From a virus (lineage: Duplodnaviria > Heunggongvirae > Uroviricota > Caudoviricetes), in the IMG/VR virus record IMGVR_UViG_2703718843_000007: a stretch of DNA of 19,983 bases, one strand, 5' to 3'. Made by a program: the position numbers and the translations under genes. This document shows, one piece after another, positions 12,522 to 18,660 of this stretch. The notes beneath the pieces were generated by a model. That model saw only the letters and a program-made list of their open reading frames with translations, was not told the DNA's origin and made no database searches. Every line of letters begins with the position of its first letter. Position 1 is the first letter of the stretch.

Positions 12522-12680
12522 ACATGTATTAAAAAAATGATATTTTTATGTACATAGTCTATTGAAAATTGCCGCGATAAAATGCCAACACCCGCTTCAT
12601 CGCGGCACTCTGGCGACACTCCTTGAAAATCAGATTCGTGCTCACCTTTCCTTCCCGTTCTTCCCTGGTAGCGAACCGGT

Positions 12681-13127
12681 AATCATCCGATCTGCGTTAC
12701 CGAGTGGATGGATGAATGCCGCCGCGAACCATTCAAAACCCGCGAAGGCAGAGAAATTACGGGGCCGTGGCAGTCGCATCCCAAACGGATGTTACGGCAT
12801 AAAGCCATGATTCAGTGTGCCCGTCTGGCCTTCGGATTTGCTGGTATCTATGACAAGGATGAAGCCGAGCGCATTGTCGAAAATACCGCATACACCGCAG
12901 AACGTCAGCCGGAACGCGACATTACTCCGGTTAACGATGAAACCATGCAGGAGATTAACACTCTGCTGATTGCCCTGGACAAAACATGGGATGACGACTT
13001 ATTGCCGCTCTGTTCCCAGATATTTCGCCGCGACATTCGCGCATCGTCAGAACTGACACAGGCCGAAGCAGTGAAAGCTCTTGGATTCCTGAAACAGAAA
13101 GCCACTGAGCAGAAGGTGGCAGCATGA
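12681..13127 (+). pseudogene. bet: bet (Red-beta single-strand annealing protein), C-terminal ~149 codons only; N-terminal ~110 codons replaced by unrelated DNA
   Basis: In-frame translation from ~12681 reads NHPICVTEWMDECRREPFKTREGREITGPWQSHPKRMLRHKAMIQCARLAFGFAGIYDK...[17 protein letters not shown], matching lambda Bet C-terminus as recalled. Upstream in-frame stop at 12669-12671; stop overlaps exo start (ATGA). Confidence 0.85.
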
Positions 13128-13804
13128 CACCGGACATTATCCTGCAGCGTACCGGGATCGACGTGAGAGCTGTCGAACAGGGGGATGATGCATGGCACAA
13201 ATTACGGCTCGGCGTCATCACCGCTTCAGAAGTTCACAACGTGATAGCCAAGCCCCGCTCAGGAAAGAAGTGGCCTGACATGAAAATGTCCTACTTCCAC
13301 ACCCTGCTGGCTGAGGTTTGCACCGGTGTGGCTCCGGAAGTTAATGCTAAGGCGCTGGCATGGGGAAAACAGTACGAGAACGACGCCAGAACCCTGTTTG
13401 AATTCACTTCCGGCGTGAATGTTACTGAATCCCCGATCATCTATCGCGACGAAAGTATGCGCACCGCCTGCTCTCCCGATGGTTTATGCAGTGACGGCAA
13501 TGGCCTTGAGCTGAAATGCCCGTTTACCTCCCGGGATTTCATGAAGTTCCGGCTCGGTGGTTTCGAGGCCATAAAGTCGGCTTACATGGCCCAGGTGCAG
13601 TACAGCATGTGGGTGACACGAAAAGATGCCTGGTACTTTGCCAACTATGACCCGCGTATGAAGCGTGAAGGACTGCATTATGTCGTGGTTGAGCGGGATG
13701 AAAAGTACATGGCGAGTTTTGACGAGATGGTGCCGGTGTTCATCGAAAAAATGGACGAGGCACTGGCTGAAATTGGTTTTGTATTTGGGGAGCAATGGCG
13801 ATGA
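13124..13804 (+). CDS. exo: Lambda exonuclease (Red-alpha)
   Basis: 226 aa [68 protein letters not shown]...GFVFGEQWR; near-identical to lambda Exo as recalled. Confidence 0.95.
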
Positions 13805-13983
13805 CGCATCCTCACGATAATATCCGGGTAGGCGCAATCACTTTCGTCTACTCCGTTACAAAGCGAGGCTGGGTATTTCCCGGCCTTTCTGTTATCCGAA
13901 ATCCACTGAAAGCACAGCGGCTGGCTGAGGAGATAAATAATAAACGAGGGGCTGTATGCACAAAGCATCTCCTGTTGAGTTAA
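13801..13983 (+). CDS. Lambda orf60a-like hypothetical protein
   Basis: 60 aa from ATG 13801 (ATGA overlap with exo stop): [60 protein letters not shown]. Confidence 0.7.
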
Positions 13984-14147
13984 GAACGAGTATCGAGATG
14001 GCACATAGCCTTGCTCAAATTGGAATCAGGTTTGTGCCAATACCAGTAGAAACAGACGAAGAATTTCATACGTTAGCCACATCCCTTTCACAAAAACTGG
14101 AAATGATGGTGGCGAAAGCAGAAGCAGATGAGAGAGACCAGGTATGA
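13956..14147 (+). CDS. Lambda orf63-like hypothetical protein
   Basis: 63 aa [63 protein letters not shown]. Confidence 0.7.
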   Translation: MHKASPVELRTSIEMAHSLAQIGIRFVPIPVETDEEFHTLATSLSQKLEMMVAKAEADERDQV

Positions 14148-14157
14148 CAACCACTGA

Positions 14158-14439
14158 ATGCATTTTTCTGGCAGCGGGCTTCATATTCTGTGTGCTTATG
14201 CTTGCCGACATGGGGCTTGTTCAGTGACACCTCAGCAGGAAAACGCCCTTCGCAGCATTGCCCGTCAGGCTAATTCTGAAATCAAAAAAGCCAGACAGCA
14301 GTTTCCGGATAAAAACGTCGATGACATTTGCCGTAGCGTACTGAAGAAGCACCGCGAAACGGTAACGCTGATGGGATTCACACCGACTCATTTAAGTCTA
14401 GCAATCGGCATGTTAAACGGCGTTTTTAAGGAACGGTGA
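14158..14439 (+). CDS. Hypothetical protein in the lambda orf61 position; start uncertain
   Basis: 93-codon ORF from ATG 14158 ending ...TLMGFTPTHLSLAIGMLNGVFKER. Length does not fit a 61-aa product, so start or frame relative to lambda is unclear. Confidence 0.4.
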   Translation: MHFSGSGLHILCAYACRHGACSVTPQQENALRSIARQANSEIKKARQQFPDKNVDDICRSVLKKHRETVTLMGFTPTHLSLAIGMLNGVFKER

Positions 14440-14537
14440 ACATGAAAAGCAAAATCATCAGGGAGCTACAGGCTCCTTTTTTATTATTCGCATTCACCCT
14501 CAAGCGTATTAACCAACAATTCAGGGATTAATGAAAG

Positions 14538-14759
14538 ATGGCAGACATCATTGATTCAGCATCAGAAATTGAAGAATTACAGCGCAACACAGCAATAAAA
14601 ATGCGCCGCCTGAACCACCAGGCTATATCTGCCACTCATTGTTGTGAGTGTGGCGATCCGATAGATGAACGAAGACGCCTGGCCGTTCAGGGTTGTCGGA
14701 CTTGTGCAAGTTGCCAGGAGGATCTGGAACTTATCAGTAAACAGAGAGGTTCGAAGTGA
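14538..14759 (+). CDS. TraR/DksA-family C4 zinc-finger protein (lambda orf73 type)
   Basis: 73 aa MADIIDSASEIEELQRNTAIKMRRLNHQAISATHCCECGDPIDERRRLAVQGCRTCASCQEDLELISKQRGSK with CxxC...CxxC motif. Confidence 0.8.
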   Translation: MADIIDSASEIEELQRNTAIKMRRLNHQAISATHCCECGDPIDERRRLAVQGCRTCASCQEDLELISKQRGSK

Positions 14760-15178
14760 GCGTAATTCACTCTCAGGCACTGCGTGAAGCGGCAGAGCAG
14801 GCAATGCATGACAACTGGGGATTTGACGCGGACCTTTTCCATGAGCTGGTAACACCATCGATTGTGCTGACACTGCTGGATGAACGGGAAAGAAACCAGC
14901 AGTACATCAAACGCCGCGACCAGGAGAACGAGGATATTGCGCTAACGGTGAGGAAACTGCGTGTTGAGCTGGAGACAGCAAAAATCAAAACTCAACGAGC
15001 AGCGTGAGTAGAAGGTGTTATCTCGGATGGAAGTAAGCGTATTGCTGAACTGGAGGCCTGGGTTGAATACACAAGAGCTGCATACGTAAGAGCAAAAGAC
15101 AAGGGAGATTTGATCAGAGTTATTACCCGACAACCAACGGGATTTTACGCTTACGTACCATGTAATTAGGAATCCTTG
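14756..15178 (+). pseudogene. ea22: ea22-like gene interrupted by an in-frame TGA (15005-15007) and truncated at its 3' end by an AT-rich insertion
   Basis: GTG start overlapping orf73 stop; 83 codons MSVIHSQALREAAEQAMHDNWGFDADLFHELVTPSIVLTLLDERERNQQYIKRRDQENEDIALTVRKLRVELETAKIKTQRAA, then TGA, then 56 more sense codons in the same frame (VEGVISDGSKRIAELEAWVEYTRAAYVRAKDKGDLIRV...) to a stop at 15176-15178. Confidence 0.6.
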
Positions 15179-15305
15179 AAGTGGCAGCCTAACTGCGGAT
15201 ACACTGAAATGGCGATTTGGTAACATGTTTCGCACAAGGCTGTTACTACGCTTAAAGATAATCAGCCATGATTAAACGCTTTGTAAAAAGTAAAAGGAAA
15301 TTACA

Positions 15306-15920
15306 ATGAAAAAATCAATACTAATTTTAGGGCTTACGTTAATTGTCTCATCTCAAATACCATCGGCAATGGCAAAAAATGAATCAAGACTTTGGGTTGT
15401 TGTTGATCGAACGGAAAGACATACCTGCCCTTCAAGTAAATGTGGAGTGGCTGGGAAACTATTTTTCAGGGAAGGCGTAGATTTTCTAGAAAAAAAAGGT
15501 GAATGGGTTCGTATAACTGAGCCATATTCAGCCTCATGTGTGGGAGGGGAAAGCGAATATATTAAAGAAGGTAATAAATCCTGCACAAGAAAAAACGGAA
15601 TCGTCAATGGCAAGTTTTCAGAATGGGTTAAACTTAGTGATCTTAGCAGTGAAAGGCCATCAGATCCTGCTGAAAATGCGAGCGGAGATGATACTTTAAT
15701 CAAAGGATCTGATGACTACCGTATATACAAAAAAGAGTTTTCTTCGGCAGCTAGGAAGTTAATAAACGAAGGGGTCTGCACGGAAAGCGACTTTAAGGAA
15801 ATCGGAGGGTGGATGGCATCAAGCAATAAGGGTAAAAACATCTATTTCACATATTGCGGAGGAATGACGTTGTCGAACAGAATATACCTAGACGTTAAAA
15901 GTGGAAAGACTTTTAGATAA
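15306..15920 (+). CDS. Secreted/periplasmic cysteine-containing protein of unknown function (moron inserted into the ea22 region)
   Basis: 204 aa; AAGGA RBS 7 nt upstream; Sec-type signal peptide MKKSILILGLTLIVSSQIPSAMA with AxA cleavage motif; 6 Cys in mature part; AT-rich; followed by a terminator. Confidence 0.8.
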   Translation: MKKSILILGLTLIVSSQIPSAMAKNESRLWVVVDRTERHTCPSSKCGVAGKLFFREGVDFLEKKGEWVRITEPYSASCVGGESEYIKEGNKSCTRKNGIVNGKFSEWVKLSDLSSERPSDPAENASGDDTLIKGSDDYRIYKKEFSSAARKLINEGVCTESDFKEIGGWMASSNKGKNIYFTYCGGMTLSNRIYLDVKSGKTFR

Positions 15921-15989
15921 TATGATATTACCAATGACAGTATTAATTTAATGCCTCCATAGAATTATCTCTAGGAAGTATGTATAAGA

Positions 15990-16027
15990 AAAGCCCGCAC
16001 AATGAGCTGCTGCGGGCTTTGTGTTAT
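15990..16027 (+). terminator. Intrinsic terminator after the secreted-protein moron
   Basis: AGCCCGCA-(11-nt loop)-TGCGGGCT followed by TTTGTGTTATT. Confidence 0.55.
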
Positions 16028-16213
16028 TCGCCATATTTTATGAAGCAAATACGACACTATAGATAATTAAGCGTTGCTGGTTGTCGATTCCTCACTCACT
16101 CCTGTTGATGGCTCTCTTCTTGTATGTGCCATTGAAGGGTAATATCGAGTAAAAAGATACCGGAAGTATCCGCGCCGCCATGATTGTCTTTCTCCTAATG
16201 CAGGAAAAGCAGA

Positions 16214-16552
16214 ATGGCTAAATCATCAGCAGAGCGCAAAGTCGATCAGAGAGCCAAGCAAGCATCATCCGGTATGCGTAAGCTGGAGCTTGTACTTGAT
16301 GCTCAGGAAATTGAAATGCTGGATCGTAACTGAGCCACGCGCCGCTTCAGGCATGCGCCTTACGAGTTTGGTGAGTACATCGCGTTACTGAGCCGCCAGG
16401 ATGATGCACGTGTGCGCTGGCGTATAAAATCGATCAGCAGAAAACGTTGCGGTAAGTGCGGCGAGAGAGTTCCTGTTAATTCATGCCCGTGTAATGGTGA
16501 CTCACAATGCTGGGTGACCAAAGGCTGGCACGAAACAAAATTAATGATATAA
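16214..16552 (+). pseudogene. ea8.5-like zinc-ribbon ORF interrupted by a single in-frame TGA (16331-16333)
   Basis: One frame: MAKSSAERKVDQRAKQASSGMRKLELVLDAQEIEMLDRN - TGA - ATRRFRHAPYEFGEYIALLSRQDDARVRWRIKSISRKRCGKCGERVPVNSCPCNGDSQCWVTKGWHETKLMI. The 72 sense codons after the TGA contain no ATG start. Assignment to ea8.5 is by position and cysteine pattern only. Confidence 0.5.
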
Positions 16553-16570
16553 ATCTCTGTGACATGTCAC
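16525..16570 (+). promoter_or_regulatory. Candidate sigma70 promoter (-35 CTGGCA, 17-nt spacer, extended -10 TGaTATAAA) with perfect 12-bp palindrome GTGACATGTCAC (16559..16570) at the predicted start site
   Basis: Hexamers at 16525-16530 and 16548-16553 with TG at 16545-16546; palindrome lies between the -10 and the GGAGG RBS (16571-16575) of the downstream gene. Confidence 0.4.
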
Positions 16571-16580
16571 GGAGGCGGCA

Positions 16581-17009
16581 ATGAAATTAGACCAGCAATA
16601 TCTAAAAGATCTACTTATCGCATTCGAAAAAACTCATGGCCCTGACACGATGCTTAGTGAACTAGAGGATAATGGCTTTAATAGATATGACCAAAATTTT
16701 ATTTTCCATATGCGATTATTATGCGACTACGAATTAATAGTCAGGGTTGATGGAAAACCTGGGTTCGGTCATATAATGTCCAACGAGTTAGGGGAAGGTG
16801 TTGGATATAGTTGGATCGAAGTACCACTGAGGTTGACAGCAAGAGGGCATGATTTTATTGCTGACTTGCGTCAAAAGGAGGTCTGGCAAACTATAAAAAC
16901 AAACTTTAAGGATGAGGGAATTAGTACACTAATAAGTGTTTCAAAATCACTAGCAAAAGGCTTTGCAAGGAAAAAGATAAAAGATATTACAGGAATAGAT
17001 ATTGAATAA
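16581..17009 (+). CDS. Hypothetical cytoplasmic protein, 142 aa (moron between ea8.5-like gene and orf55)
   Basis: GGAGG RBS 5 nt upstream of ATG; MKLDQQYLKDLLIAFEKTHGPDTMLSELEDNGFNRYDQNFIFHMRLLCDYELIVRVDGKPGFGHIMSNELGEGVGYSWIEVPLRLTARGHDFIADLRQKEVWQTIKTNFKDEGISTLISVSKSLAKGFARKKIKDITGIDIE; no signal peptide or transmembrane segment; AT-rich; own terminator. Confidence 0.8.
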   Translation: MKLDQQYLKDLLIAFEKTHGPDTMLSELEDNGFNRYDQNFIFHMRLLCDYELIVRVDGKPGFGHIMSNELGEGVGYSWIEVPLRLTARGHDFIADLRQKEVWQTIKTNFKDEGISTLISVSKSLAKGFARKKIKDITGIDIE

Positions 17010-17051
17010 TTCTTAGCATCAGCAACTACTGCCTTTGGTGGAAATTATATC

Positions 17052-17080
17052 TGAACTCGCTACGGCGAGTTTTGTTTTAT
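17052..17080 (+). terminator. Intrinsic terminator after the 142-aa moron gene
   Basis: GAACTCGC-TACG-GCGAGTT stem-loop followed by TTGTTTTAT. Confidence 0.55.
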
Positions 17081-17091
17081 GGAGATGATAA

Positions 17092-17259
17092 ATGCACTTC
17101 CGAGTCACAGGTGAATGGAATGGAGAACCATTCAACAGAGTTATCGAAGCAGAGAACATCAATGACTGCTATGACCACTGGATGATATGGGCGCAGATAG
17201 CACATGCAGACATAACCAATATTCGAATTGAAGAACTGAAAGAACACCAAGCCGCCTGA
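17092..17259 (+). CDS. Lambda orf55-like small protein
   Basis: 55 aa MHFRVTGEWNGEPFNRVIEAENINDCYDHWMIWAQIAHADITNIRIEELKEHQAA; GGAGA RBS; translated by hand (below ORF-track cutoff). Confidence 0.65.
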   Translation: MHFRVTGEWNGEPFNRVIEAENINDCYDHWMIWAQIAHADITNIRIEELKEHQAA

Positions 17260-17274
17260 TGGCGGTTTTTTCTT
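17251..17274 (+). terminator. Terminator-like hairpin between orf55 and xis (tL-type)
   Basis: GCCGCC-TGAT-GGCGG followed by TTTTTTCTT; overlaps the orf55 stop codon. Confidence 0.45.
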
Positions 17275-17298
17275 GCGTGTAATTGCGGAGACTTTGCG

Positions 17299-17517
17299 AT
17301 GTACTTGACACTTCAGGAGTGGAACGCTCGCCAGCGACGCCCAAGAAGCCTTGAAACAGTTCGTCGATGGGTGCGCGAATGCAGGATATTCCCTCCTCCG
17401 GTTAAGGATGGAAGAGAATATCTGTTCCACGAATCAGCGGTAAAGGTTGACTTAAATCGACCAGTAACAGGTAGCCTTTTGAAGAGGATCAGAAATGGGA
17501 AGAAGGCGAAGTCATGA
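17299..17517 (+). CDS. xis: Excisionase Xis (lambda type)
   Basis: 72 aa MYLTLQEWNARQRRPRSLETVRRWVRECRIFPPPVKDGREYLFHESAVKVDLNRPVTGSLLKRIRNGKKAKS. Confidence 0.95.
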   Translation: MYLTLQEWNARQRRPRSLETVRRWVRECRIFPPPVKDGREYLFHESAVKVDLNRPVTGSLLKRIRNGKKAKS

Positions 17518-18565
17518 GCGCCGGGATTTACCCCCTAACCTTTATATAAGAAACAATGGATATTACTGCTACAGGGACCCAAGGACGGGTAAAGAGTTTG
17601 GATTAGGCCGAGACAGGCGAATCGCAATCACTGAAGCTATACAGGCCAACATTGAGTTATTTTCAGGACACAAACACAAGCCTCTGACAGCGAGAATCAA
17701 CAGTGATAATTCCGTTACGTTACATTCATGGCTTGATCGCTACGAAAAAATCCTGGCCAGCAGAGGAATCAAGCAGAAGACACTCATAAATTACATGAGC
17801 AAAATTAAAGCAATAAGGAGGGGTCTGCCTGATGCTCCACTTGAAGACATCACCACAAAAGAAATTGCGGCAATGCTCAATGGATACATAGACGAGGGAA
17901 AGGCGGCATCAGCCAAGTTAATCAGATCAACACTGAGCGATGCATTCCGAGAGGCTATGGCTGAAGGCCATATAACAACAAACCCGGTCGCAGCCACTCG
18001 CGCTGCAAAATCAGAGGTAAGGAGATCAAGACTTACGGCTGACGAATACCTGAAAATTTATCAAGCAGCAGAATCATCACCATGTTGGCTTAGACTTGCA
18101 ATGGAACTGGCTGTTGTTACCGGGCAGCGAGTTGGTGATTTATGCGAAATGAAGTGGTCTGATATCGTAGATGGATATCTTTATGTCGAGCAAAGCAAAA
18201 CAGGCGTAAAAATTGCCATCCCAACAACATTGCATGTTGATGCTCTCGGGATATCAATGAAGGAAACACTTGATAAATGCAAAAAGATTCTTGGCGGAGA
18301 AACCATAATTGCATCTACTCGTCGTGAACCGCTTTCATCCGGCACAGTATCAAGGTATTTTATGCGCGCACGAAAAGCATCAGGTCTCTCCTTCGAAGGG
18401 GATCCGCCAACCTTTCACGAGTTGCGCAGTTTGTCTGCAAGACTCTATGAGAAGCAGATAAGCGATAAATTTGCTCAACATCTTCTCGGGCATAAGTCGG
18501 ACACCATGGCATCACAGTATCGTGATGACAGAGGCAGGGAGTGGGACAAAATTGAAATCAAATAA
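17495..18565 (+). CDS. int: Tyrosine integrase Int (lambda type)
   Basis: 356 aa MGRRRSHERRDLPPNLYIRNNGYYCYRDPRTGKEFGLGRDRRIAITEAIQANIELFSGHKHKPLTARINSDN... with C-terminal catalytic region (HELRSLSARLYE...LLGHKSDTMASQY); start overlaps xis. Confidence 0.95.
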   Translation: MGRRRSHERRDLPPNLYIRNNGYYCYRDPRTGKEFGLGRDRRIAITEAIQANIELFSGHKHKPLTARINSDNSVTLHSWLDRYEKILASRGIKQKTLINYMSKIKAIRRGLPDAPLEDITTKEIAAMLNGYIDEGKAASAKLIRSTLSDAFREAMAEGHITTNPVAATRAAKSEVRRSRLTADEYLKIYQAAESSPCWLRLAMELAVVTGQRVGDLCEMKWSDIVDGYLYVEQSKTGVKIAIPTTLHVDALGISMKETLDKCKKILGGETIIASTRREPLSSGTVSRYFMRARKASGLSFEGDPPTFHELRSLSARLYEKQISDKFAQHLLGHKSDTMASQYRDDRGREWDKIEIK

Positions 18566-18660
18566 TGATTTTATTTTGACTGATAGTGACCTGTTCGTTG
18601 CAACAAATTGATAAGCAATGCTTTTTTATAATGCCAACTTAGTATAAAAAAGCAGGCTTC
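18566..18660. other. attL (B-O-P' junction) of the lambda attachment site: P' arm with Int arm-type sites, 15-bp core at 18639..18653, then bacterial B arm
   Basis: Reverse complement of 18600..18661 reads TGAAGCCTGC TTTTTTATACTAA GTTGGCATTATAAAAAAGCATTGCTTATCAATTTGTTG..., i.e. bacterial arm + core + P' arm; P' contains AGGTCACTAT and CAGTCAAAAT arm-type repeats. Confidence 0.85.

Follow-up and report, generated by a model that had tools for sequence, protein, structure and literature searches.

Which function could keep a small gene for an exported protein intact in a defective prophage and also carry it from one kind of mobile element to another? The question is raised by a 204-amino-acid (aa) open reading frame (ORF) at positions 15306..15920 of the viral record IMGVR_UViG_2703718843_000007, a stretch of 19,983 nucleotides (nt) that was analyzed at its full length and is referred to here as the window. 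A cryptic lambdoid prophage, integrated beside ybhC, makes up the window. An earlier reading of the same DNA (the original prediction) had described the ORF as a self-contained accessory gene, or moron, for a secreted cysteine-containing protein with its own ribosome-binding site (RBS) and terminator. We show that the ORF is a real gene and that mobile elements with no relation to each other exchange it as a unit. Its product is predicted to be exported and to join an SH3b-fold domain to a conserved, uncatalogued C-terminal module, and protection of the cell wall of the carrier is the function that we tentatively favor.

A single-gene cassette that moves between mobile elements

The coding sequence (CDS) on the plus strand begins with an ATG, the first start codon past the upstream in-frame stop, and ends with the stop codon at 15918..15920. 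The RBS, AAGGA at 15294..15298, is spaced 7 nt from the ATG and is kept in a copy of the gene from Escherichia fergusonii (85% nucleotide identity). The product is identical to RefSeq WP_000748284.1, a "hypothetical protein," and is matched over its full length by PHROG 8310 (E 3.6e-136); a word-index search retrieved 82 homologues at E <= 1e-3. The ratio of nonsynonymous to synonymous substitution rates (dN/dS) was 0.11 against the copy in phage Chlobot, 0.075 against an IncA plasmid copy, and 0.088 against the E. fergusonii copy. As dN/dS is about 0.1 against all three copies, 15306..15920 is a gene under purifying selection rather than a reading frame open by chance. An overlapping antisense ORF (15353..15703, minus strand; 116 aa) was rejected because substitutions follow the pattern expected of the frame on the plus strand. 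The GC content of the gene is 39.0%, compared with 44.2% for the whole window and about 52% for the adjoining ea22 stretch, in agreement with the earlier description of AT-rich DNA. Counting the window, the gene was lower in GC than its surroundings in six of the seven hosts checked, the exception being a small ColE1-type plasmid (50.4% in the gene versus 46.1% in the plasmid).

The extent of the transferred unit can be read from an E. fergusonii phage-plasmid, which encodes an 88%-identical protein behind an S24 peptidase gene. DNA homology to this element spans window positions 15164-15922 at 85% identity, with a related terminator beyond. It begins with a non-coding leader of 142 nt (15164..15305, plus strand) that was co-transferred with the gene. 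It is plausible that the leader contains the gene's own promoter: a weak candidate is formed by TTGAAG (15176..15181) and TACACT (15200..15205), separated by 18 nt. This pair scores 8 of 12 against a scanner threshold of 9, and no plus-strand sigma-70 consensus site above that threshold was found in 14400..17600. Both candidate hexamers are kept in the E. fergusonii copy, where the spacer between them varies, and the fold of the leader is unremarkable (z = -1.3).

The terminator that had been claimed directly downstream is represented by a putative intrinsic-terminator-type hairpin (15990..16029, plus strand), in which an A-tract and a GCCCGC/GCGGGC stem are followed by TTTGTGTTATT. The hairpin itself, at about 15993..16017, lies roughly 70 nt past the stop codon (fold z = -2.9); the terminator scanner flagged it on the minus strand only. 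The E. fergusonii DNA diverges directly past the stop codon, after which a related stem with a clean T-run returns: at the equivalent relative place, a textbook stem (GCCCGC..GCGGG) is followed by TTTTTTTATTTT. A search of 14900..16400 against Rfam found no RNA family; the lone match, to Thr_leader (21 bits versus a 55-bit cut-off), corresponds to the terminator hairpin.

The DksA-like/ea22 stretch upstream of the gene is common to thousands of E. coli prophages, and homology to them ends at 15054/15055. A sister prophage in strain F5, integrated at the same attachment site (ybhC), lacks the gene at a discrete junction, with homology breaking at 15054 and resuming at 17045. The break at 15055 together with the resumption at 17045 defines 15055..17044 as a variable cargo slot, in which the 204-aa gene comes first and of which an Ea22-like stub forms the left edge. 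Insertion into the ea22 region, as originally proposed, was therefore correct.

Within E. coli, the gene was present in 133 of 5,426 complete genomes, with 128 locations on chromosomes and 11 on plasmids; it also occurs in one deposited phage and in 51 IMG/VR contigs. Copies with 98-99% identity were found on IncA-type and other large plasmids of Citrobacter, Klebsiella, Enterobacter, and E. coli, where they lie within a captured prophage fragment. Copies with 60-69% identity, all 204 aa long, are carried by other hosts and elements. In Pseudomonas, such copies are located on small islands with the gene directly behind an integrase, and a replicon of P. veronii carries a copy within a region resembling an integrative and conjugative element (ICE). 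A copy in an Aeromonas prophage sits between a Q-like antiterminator gene and lysis genes, and it is 91% identical at the nucleotide level to the copy on a 5.3-kb ColE1-type plasmid of Citrobacter (a 64% copy). The 91% identity indicates that the gene was passed recently between genera and between mobile elements of different kinds. The two copies belong to an A. hydrophila prophage (L006 10001..10615) and a C. braakii plasmid (L008 2914..3528).

No conserved partner gene accompanies these copies. Across 67 genome loci there was no recurrent neighbor family except for vertical synteny in Vibrio, where distant relatives occupy syntenic chromosomal loci. On phage contigs, the positions of relatives are unrelated and their orientation is often opposite to that of the neighbors. 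One viral contig carries a family member beside a GH19 endolysin gene and umuDC (L147), and another beside genes for endonuclease I and a GH24 lysozyme (L151). In a third (L138), the member follows Rz and precedes an ORF that has no Pfam match and was taken for a likely terminase gene from its position.

Overall, leader, RBS, CDS, and terminator make up a cassette with a single gene that is spread by horizontal transfer. The discrete slot junctions, the co-transferred unit, and the diversity of mobile carriers bear out its description as a moron, and a predicted terminator of its own (hairpin and T-tract) and a deviant base composition accompany them. The original prediction had named clear homology to a characterized housekeeping periplasmic protein and occurrence of the same gene off prophages as evidence that would speak against it. 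No such homologue was found. The gene does in part occur off prophages, on plasmids, an ICE-like element, and integrase islands, all of which are mobile.

Several further observations concern individual carriers. The Pseudomonas islands (L003 8402..14411; L009-L012) have in common the integrase, the gene, and three to four conserved genes without a Pfam match on record, in that order; in L003, three of these have no PHROG match and the fourth matches a transcriptional-regulator PHROG. In three E. coli genomes (1332KP, PSS-16, and EP91B), IS1 is inserted within the 781-bp unit and apparently splits the gene. Alphaproteobacterial phage contigs (L144 7752..8546; L152 7569..8225; L145) carry a membrane-anchored member, reversed, between tail-tube and capsid/protease genes, which is an unusual accessory site.

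Predicted export, fold, and family of the product

We strongly infer from its sequence that the product is exported by Sec, is cleaved after A-M-A, and forms three disulfides in the periplasm. A signal peptide was called by rule from the sequence letters (small residues at -3 and -1) for residues 1-23 (MKKSILILGLTLIVSSQIPSAMA; 15306..15374, plus strand). It has an MKK n-region, the h-region SILILGLTLIVSS, and the c-region QIPSAMA. Signal peptidase I is predicted to cleave after A-M-A and before K24, so that the mature protein would begin with KNE directly behind MKKSILILGLTLIVSSQIPSAMA. The AlphaFold predicted local distance difference test (pLDDT) score was 51-52 across the signal peptide, as expected for such a segment. 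The Sec signal of the original prediction is thus recovered in its n/h/c layout and A-x-A site. There is no lipobox cysteine, and residues 1-40 are without any cysteine; a match to LPAM_1 (Pfam) was below the cut-off and spanned the n- and h-regions only. Assignment as a Cor/Llp-type exclusion lipoprotein was considered and rejected, as there is no lipobox with a +1 cysteine. N-terminal sequences vary among relatives, yet a signal peptide, lipobox, or transmembrane anchor is always present.

The six cysteines that had been noticed in the mature part (C41, C46, C78, C93, C158, and C184) are each at least 90% conserved in an alignment of 41 sequences. Across 424 relatives, the pairs 41+46, 78+93, and 158+184 are jointly present or absent. 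This pairwise gain and loss points to three disulfides and hence to folding outside the cytoplasm.

AlphaFold, supplied with the 41-sequence alignment, modeled the protein with a pLDDT of 90.5 and a predicted template modeling score (pTM) of 0.73. In this model the N-terminal domain (residues ~27-112; 15384..15641, plus strand) has the SH3b beta-barrel fold, with two extra disulfide-closed loops, C41-C46 and, within an insertion, C78-C93. Simpler relatives that were found by the same family profile pass the cut-off of Pfam SH3_3 with 35-88 bits. A fold search of BFVD returned SH3b and endolysin matches only and no full-length viral homologue. The earlier hint at an SH3-like fold was right for this domain. 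The accompanying hint at a lysozyme-inhibitor-like fold found no support, as neither a family match (Ivy, MliC/PliC, PliG) nor a fold match was obtained.

A conserved linker with an R-P-x-D-P motif (residues 113-128; 15642..15689, plus strand) connects the two domains. Each of R117, P118, D120, and P121 is either invariant or conserved to at least 90%, and the linker is modeled at a pLDDT of 94-98, which suggests that it holds the domains in a fixed arrangement. The C-terminal core domain (residues ~129-204; 15690..15917, plus strand) is modeled as two helices (138-154 and 160-166) followed by a three-stranded sheet, with the predicted disulfide C158-C184. It contains the motifs S-D-D-[YF], GGW, and YFTYCGG. 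This domain is a conserved module that is not catalogued: it has no Pfam or NCBIfam model, and a PDB sequence search gave no meaningful match. The single protein hit one PDB entry by chance (a head-closure protein, E 1.3), and a profile of the domain matched nothing but designed TIM barrels, by way of a single amphipathic helix; both were dismissed as spurious. For the 204-aa protein as a whole, NCBIfam gave no match, and the only PHROG matched was the unannotated family 8310.

The C-terminal domain is also the constant part of a much larger family. An exhaustive profile search returned 1,571 cluster representatives at E <= 1e-3, 607 of them at E <= 1e-10, from Gamma-, Alpha-, and Epsilonproteobacteria, Acidobacteria, and Vampirovibrionales, with 45-55% identity across phyla in the core domain. 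The domain occurs alone in lipoproteins or signal-peptide proteins of about 100-115 aa, many of which lie in prophage-like regions of Agrobacterium and other bacteria. Proteins with this domain only match PHROG 8310 at positions 130-204. In other architectures it is combined with a transmembrane anchor and cytoplasmic zinc ribbon, is present in tandem copies, or follows one to three SH3b domains or ankyrin repeats. No catalytic domain was fused to family members in the architectures examined. More distant relatives lie among housekeeping genes in one metagenomic contig. All source names retrieved for relatives were "hypothetical" or "SH3 domain protein," and accession and topic searches found no paper on the family. 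As the genome loci were retrieved with the pattern [IMV]YFTYCG(G), part of the invariance of this motif in alignment A5 follows from the way in which the loci were chosen; neither alignment A1 nor the exhaustive profile search depends on the pattern.

Proposed wall protection and its alternatives

Single-gene movement across very different elements, combined with strong purifying selection, makes it very probable that the gene confers a portable benefit at the cell envelope. Lysogenic conversion or exclusion, which the original prediction had called typical of self-contained genes in this interval, may be part of it. For the nature of this benefit, we favor a periplasmic mechanism in which the SH3b domain would dock the protein on the peptidoglycan sacculus. 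The partner of the C-terminal domain would be the sacculus or, alternatively, a conserved enzyme that arrives from outside and degrades murein, and the wall of the carrier cell would be shielded as a result. Candidates for such a partner from outside are lysozymes, the lysins of phage tails or virions, amidases and muramidases that are secreted or injected, and bacteriocins. We put the probability of this reading at roughly 30%. Binding rather than catalysis is suggested because the only invariant polar residues are the helix-capping S-D-D, and a conserved His/nucleophile pattern is absent; the small size and the disulfide staple point the same way. The conservation across phyla, in turn, argues for an invariant target. 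The shielding mechanism itself is proposed by analogy with lysozyme inhibitors and T4 Sp. In a more general form of the proposal, the C-terminal module (~80 residues, one disulfide) would define a class of periplasmic proteins that is both new and widespread and whose members bind murein or neutralize murein hydrolases. Mobile elements (phages, plasmids, ICEs, and islands) would spread them as one-gene, envelope-level protection against lysis from without, whether by the lysins of incoming phages, by muramidases and amidases that are injected or secreted, or by lysozymes, with SH3b as the wall anchor of the 204-aa form. This generalization is distinctly doubtful.

Several results weigh against wall protection. 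As there is no characterized homologue, the mechanism rests on domain analogy, and SH3b domains are not all peptidoglycan binders. Pfam SH3_3 matched the window protein at residues 40-72 with only 16.1 bits (E 0.013), below the curated cut-off of 27, and a search of PADLOC-DB 2.0 returned 0 defense families at E <= 1. The proximity to lysis genes in three phages may reflect nothing other than a known insertion hot spot. Expression in the strain is also uncertain, as there is no consensus promoter and pL has been lost from the prophage. Finally, the relatives at syntenic chromosomal loci in Vibrio and in a housekeeping context fit a general envelope role equally well.

Such a role, without any inhibitory function, is possible if still unlikely. 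Both domains would then bind peptidoglycan non-covalently, or lipoprotein forms would tether the outer membrane to the wall, and the envelope would be stiffened or stabilized; mobile elements would carry the gene as a mild fitness or stress-tolerance factor, comparable to the surface changes due to Bor/Iss and TraT. Consistent with this are the SH3b fold, a weak similarity of the C-terminal part to a peptidoglycan-binding domain, and the many relatives that are lipoproteins or membrane anchored, as well as the chromosomal copies in Vibrio and those beside housekeeping genes. The very high conservation of the core domain between phyla (45-55%) would suit an invariant ligand such as murein. However, repeated capture as the sole cargo of phages, small plasmids, and integrase islands is hard to explain by a purely architectural role, and membrane tethering is impossible for the E. 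coli form, which is predicted to be soluble and has no lipobox.

The other alternatives concern phage biology and bacterial competition, and each accounts for part of the genomic context. A periplasmic block of incoming phage or conjugative DNA, acting on the entry machinery or the host receptor rather than protecting murein, would suit the early-left, int-proximal accessory region of lambdoid phages, which is the home of sieB, ral, and similar genes, and it would suit the carriage of the gene as lone cargo by mobile elements of several kinds. P1 Sim and T4 Sp are known examples of exclusion proteins that have a signal peptide and act in the periplasm. Exclusion factors are, in contrast, usually narrow in range and fast evolving, whereas strong conservation (dN/dS ~0.1) is seen in this family, which reaches from E. 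coli to Pseudomonas, Aeromonas, and Alphaproteobacteria. Core-like chromosomal copies exist, and neither a PADLOC match nor a Cor/Llp-type lipobox was found, so that superinfection or entry exclusion appears improbable. A role in the lytic cycle is less probable again. The protein would modulate endolysin or spanin action or lysis timing, or prevent premature lysis or lysis from without in early infection, and intact phages would transcribe the gene from pL by antitermination, not in the lysogen. The Chlobot gene indeed lies in a pL-direction operon downstream of exo/bet, relatives lie beside GH19 endolysin (L147) and GH24 lysozyme (L151) genes or just after Rz (L138), and no strong promoter of its own was found. 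Yet the gene is intact and under purifying selection in a prophage without pL, N, and the repressor region, and it is also carried by elements devoid of lysis genes (plasmids, an ICE-like element, and integrase islands). Its position differs between phages, and it appears to have its own terminator in addition to the co-transferred leader. Least probable is that mobile elements spread the gene as acquired interbacterial defense, with its product acting in the periplasm as an orphan immunity protein against a single family of toxins that attack peptidoglycan, either a type VI effector or a bacteriocin. No effector gene adjoins the gene in any of about 80 contexts, the spread over phyla and environments is broader than that of typical cognate immunity families, and the fold scores were not significant.

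Prophage setting and relation to known systems

The prophage in the window is near-identical to one in E. coli FORC_081, two indels aside. Relative to the latter, the window is without ~2.7 kb of tail and terminase remnants and has an extra 1.26 kb in the exo region (13152..14413). Positions 12675-18653 correspond collinearly, at 97.8%, to the early-left arm of Chlobot, a sequenced phage, in the order recT', exo, small ORFs, DksA-like gene, ea22 stub, the 204-aa gene, UmuD-like gene, regulator gene, DUF2513 gene, 55-aa ORF, xis, and int. The immunity (repressor) region, N, and pL are absent. A truncated recT abuts a ren fragment (~12675 and upstream), and the prophage is defective. The ead/Ea22-like gene at the left edge of the slot (14756..15055, plus strand) is truncated and frameshifted, with PHROG 250/368 matches to its N-terminal part only; RefSeq labels the equivalent as a pseudogene without C-terminus. 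In strain F5, the slot (L103 4519..5279) holds a different gene, for a cysteine-rich 93-aa protein (L103 4957..5238).

Two further pieces of cargo lie in the slot outside the moron unit. The first consists of decayed UmuD-like and small regulator genes (16074..16552, plus strand), annotated in RefSeq as a "DNA repair protein" that is incomplete and as a hypothetical protein with an internal stop; both genes are intact in Chlobot (L002 9769..10247). Genes of the S24/UmuD type were also seen near family members on the E. fergusonii phage-plasmid (L016 2359..2751) and, with umuC, on a viral contig (L147 4144..5842). The second is a separate DUF2513 gene (16581..17009; PHROG 585), and the segment that starts with it (16581..17044, plus strand) reaches the right edge of the slot at 17044/17045. 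The gene is a second self-contained cargo, with a terminator-like site at 17053..17072, and PHROG 585 is without known function. In Marinobacter litoralis, a DUF2513 gene (L098 6401..6763) lies directly behind a family member that consists of the C-terminal domain only. DUF2513 was found beside a family member in only two independent contexts among about 80.

For the window alone, the gene is moderately interesting and unsurprising as prophage cargo. Prophage genes for exported proteins often alter a bacterium's dealings with phages, competitors, and host defenses, and the family is large, with ~1,570 cluster representatives, none of which was found to have been studied. If wall protection is indeed the benefit, the cassette would represent a new type of one-gene defense. 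Otherwise, the protein would still be a cheap target for work on domain function, being 204 aa long, predicted to be soluble, and confidently modeled. The gene is already in databases as a hypothetical protein and in PHROG 8310, whose full-length match carries no annotated function and thus names the family and explains nothing. The core domain around which its product is built is absent from Pfam, NCBIfam, and PDB.

Bor, Lom, and Cor are exported envelope proteins encoded by lambdoid prophage morons. The locus resembles these in being a single accessory gene with a predicted terminator of its own, deviant composition, patchy occurrence among related prophages, and an exported product. It has no sequence or fold relation to them, and its product is predicted to be a soluble periplasmic protein rather than a lipoprotein or outer-membrane barrel. 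In contrast to theirs, the gene lies in the ea22/int-proximal slot and not by lysis or tail genes, and it is also common on plasmids, on islands, and in many phyla. Its N-terminal half is predicted to share the fold of SH3b wall-binding domains (Pfam SH3_3 [PF08239], lysostaphin SH3b, endolysin cell wall-binding domains, and NlpC/P60 SH3b). It differs from these in lacking a catalytic domain, in its two extra disulfide-closed loops and insertion of ~25 residues, and in its score below the Pfam cut-off. Membership in the lysozyme-inhibitor families was rejected for want of a profile or fold match, and the analogy is one of action only. Like Ivy, MliC/PliC, PliG, and T4 Sp (spackle), the protein is small and stand-alone, is predicted to be exported, and has no partner gene; some of those proteins are lipoproteins and some are disulfide bonded. 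The best structural neighbor of the C-terminal domain is extracellular subdomain 2 of MapZ from Streptococcus pneumoniae (PDB 2NDA; 62 residues, 2.7 Å), which likewise consists of helices followed by an antiparallel sheet and which binds sacculi (PMC4931243).

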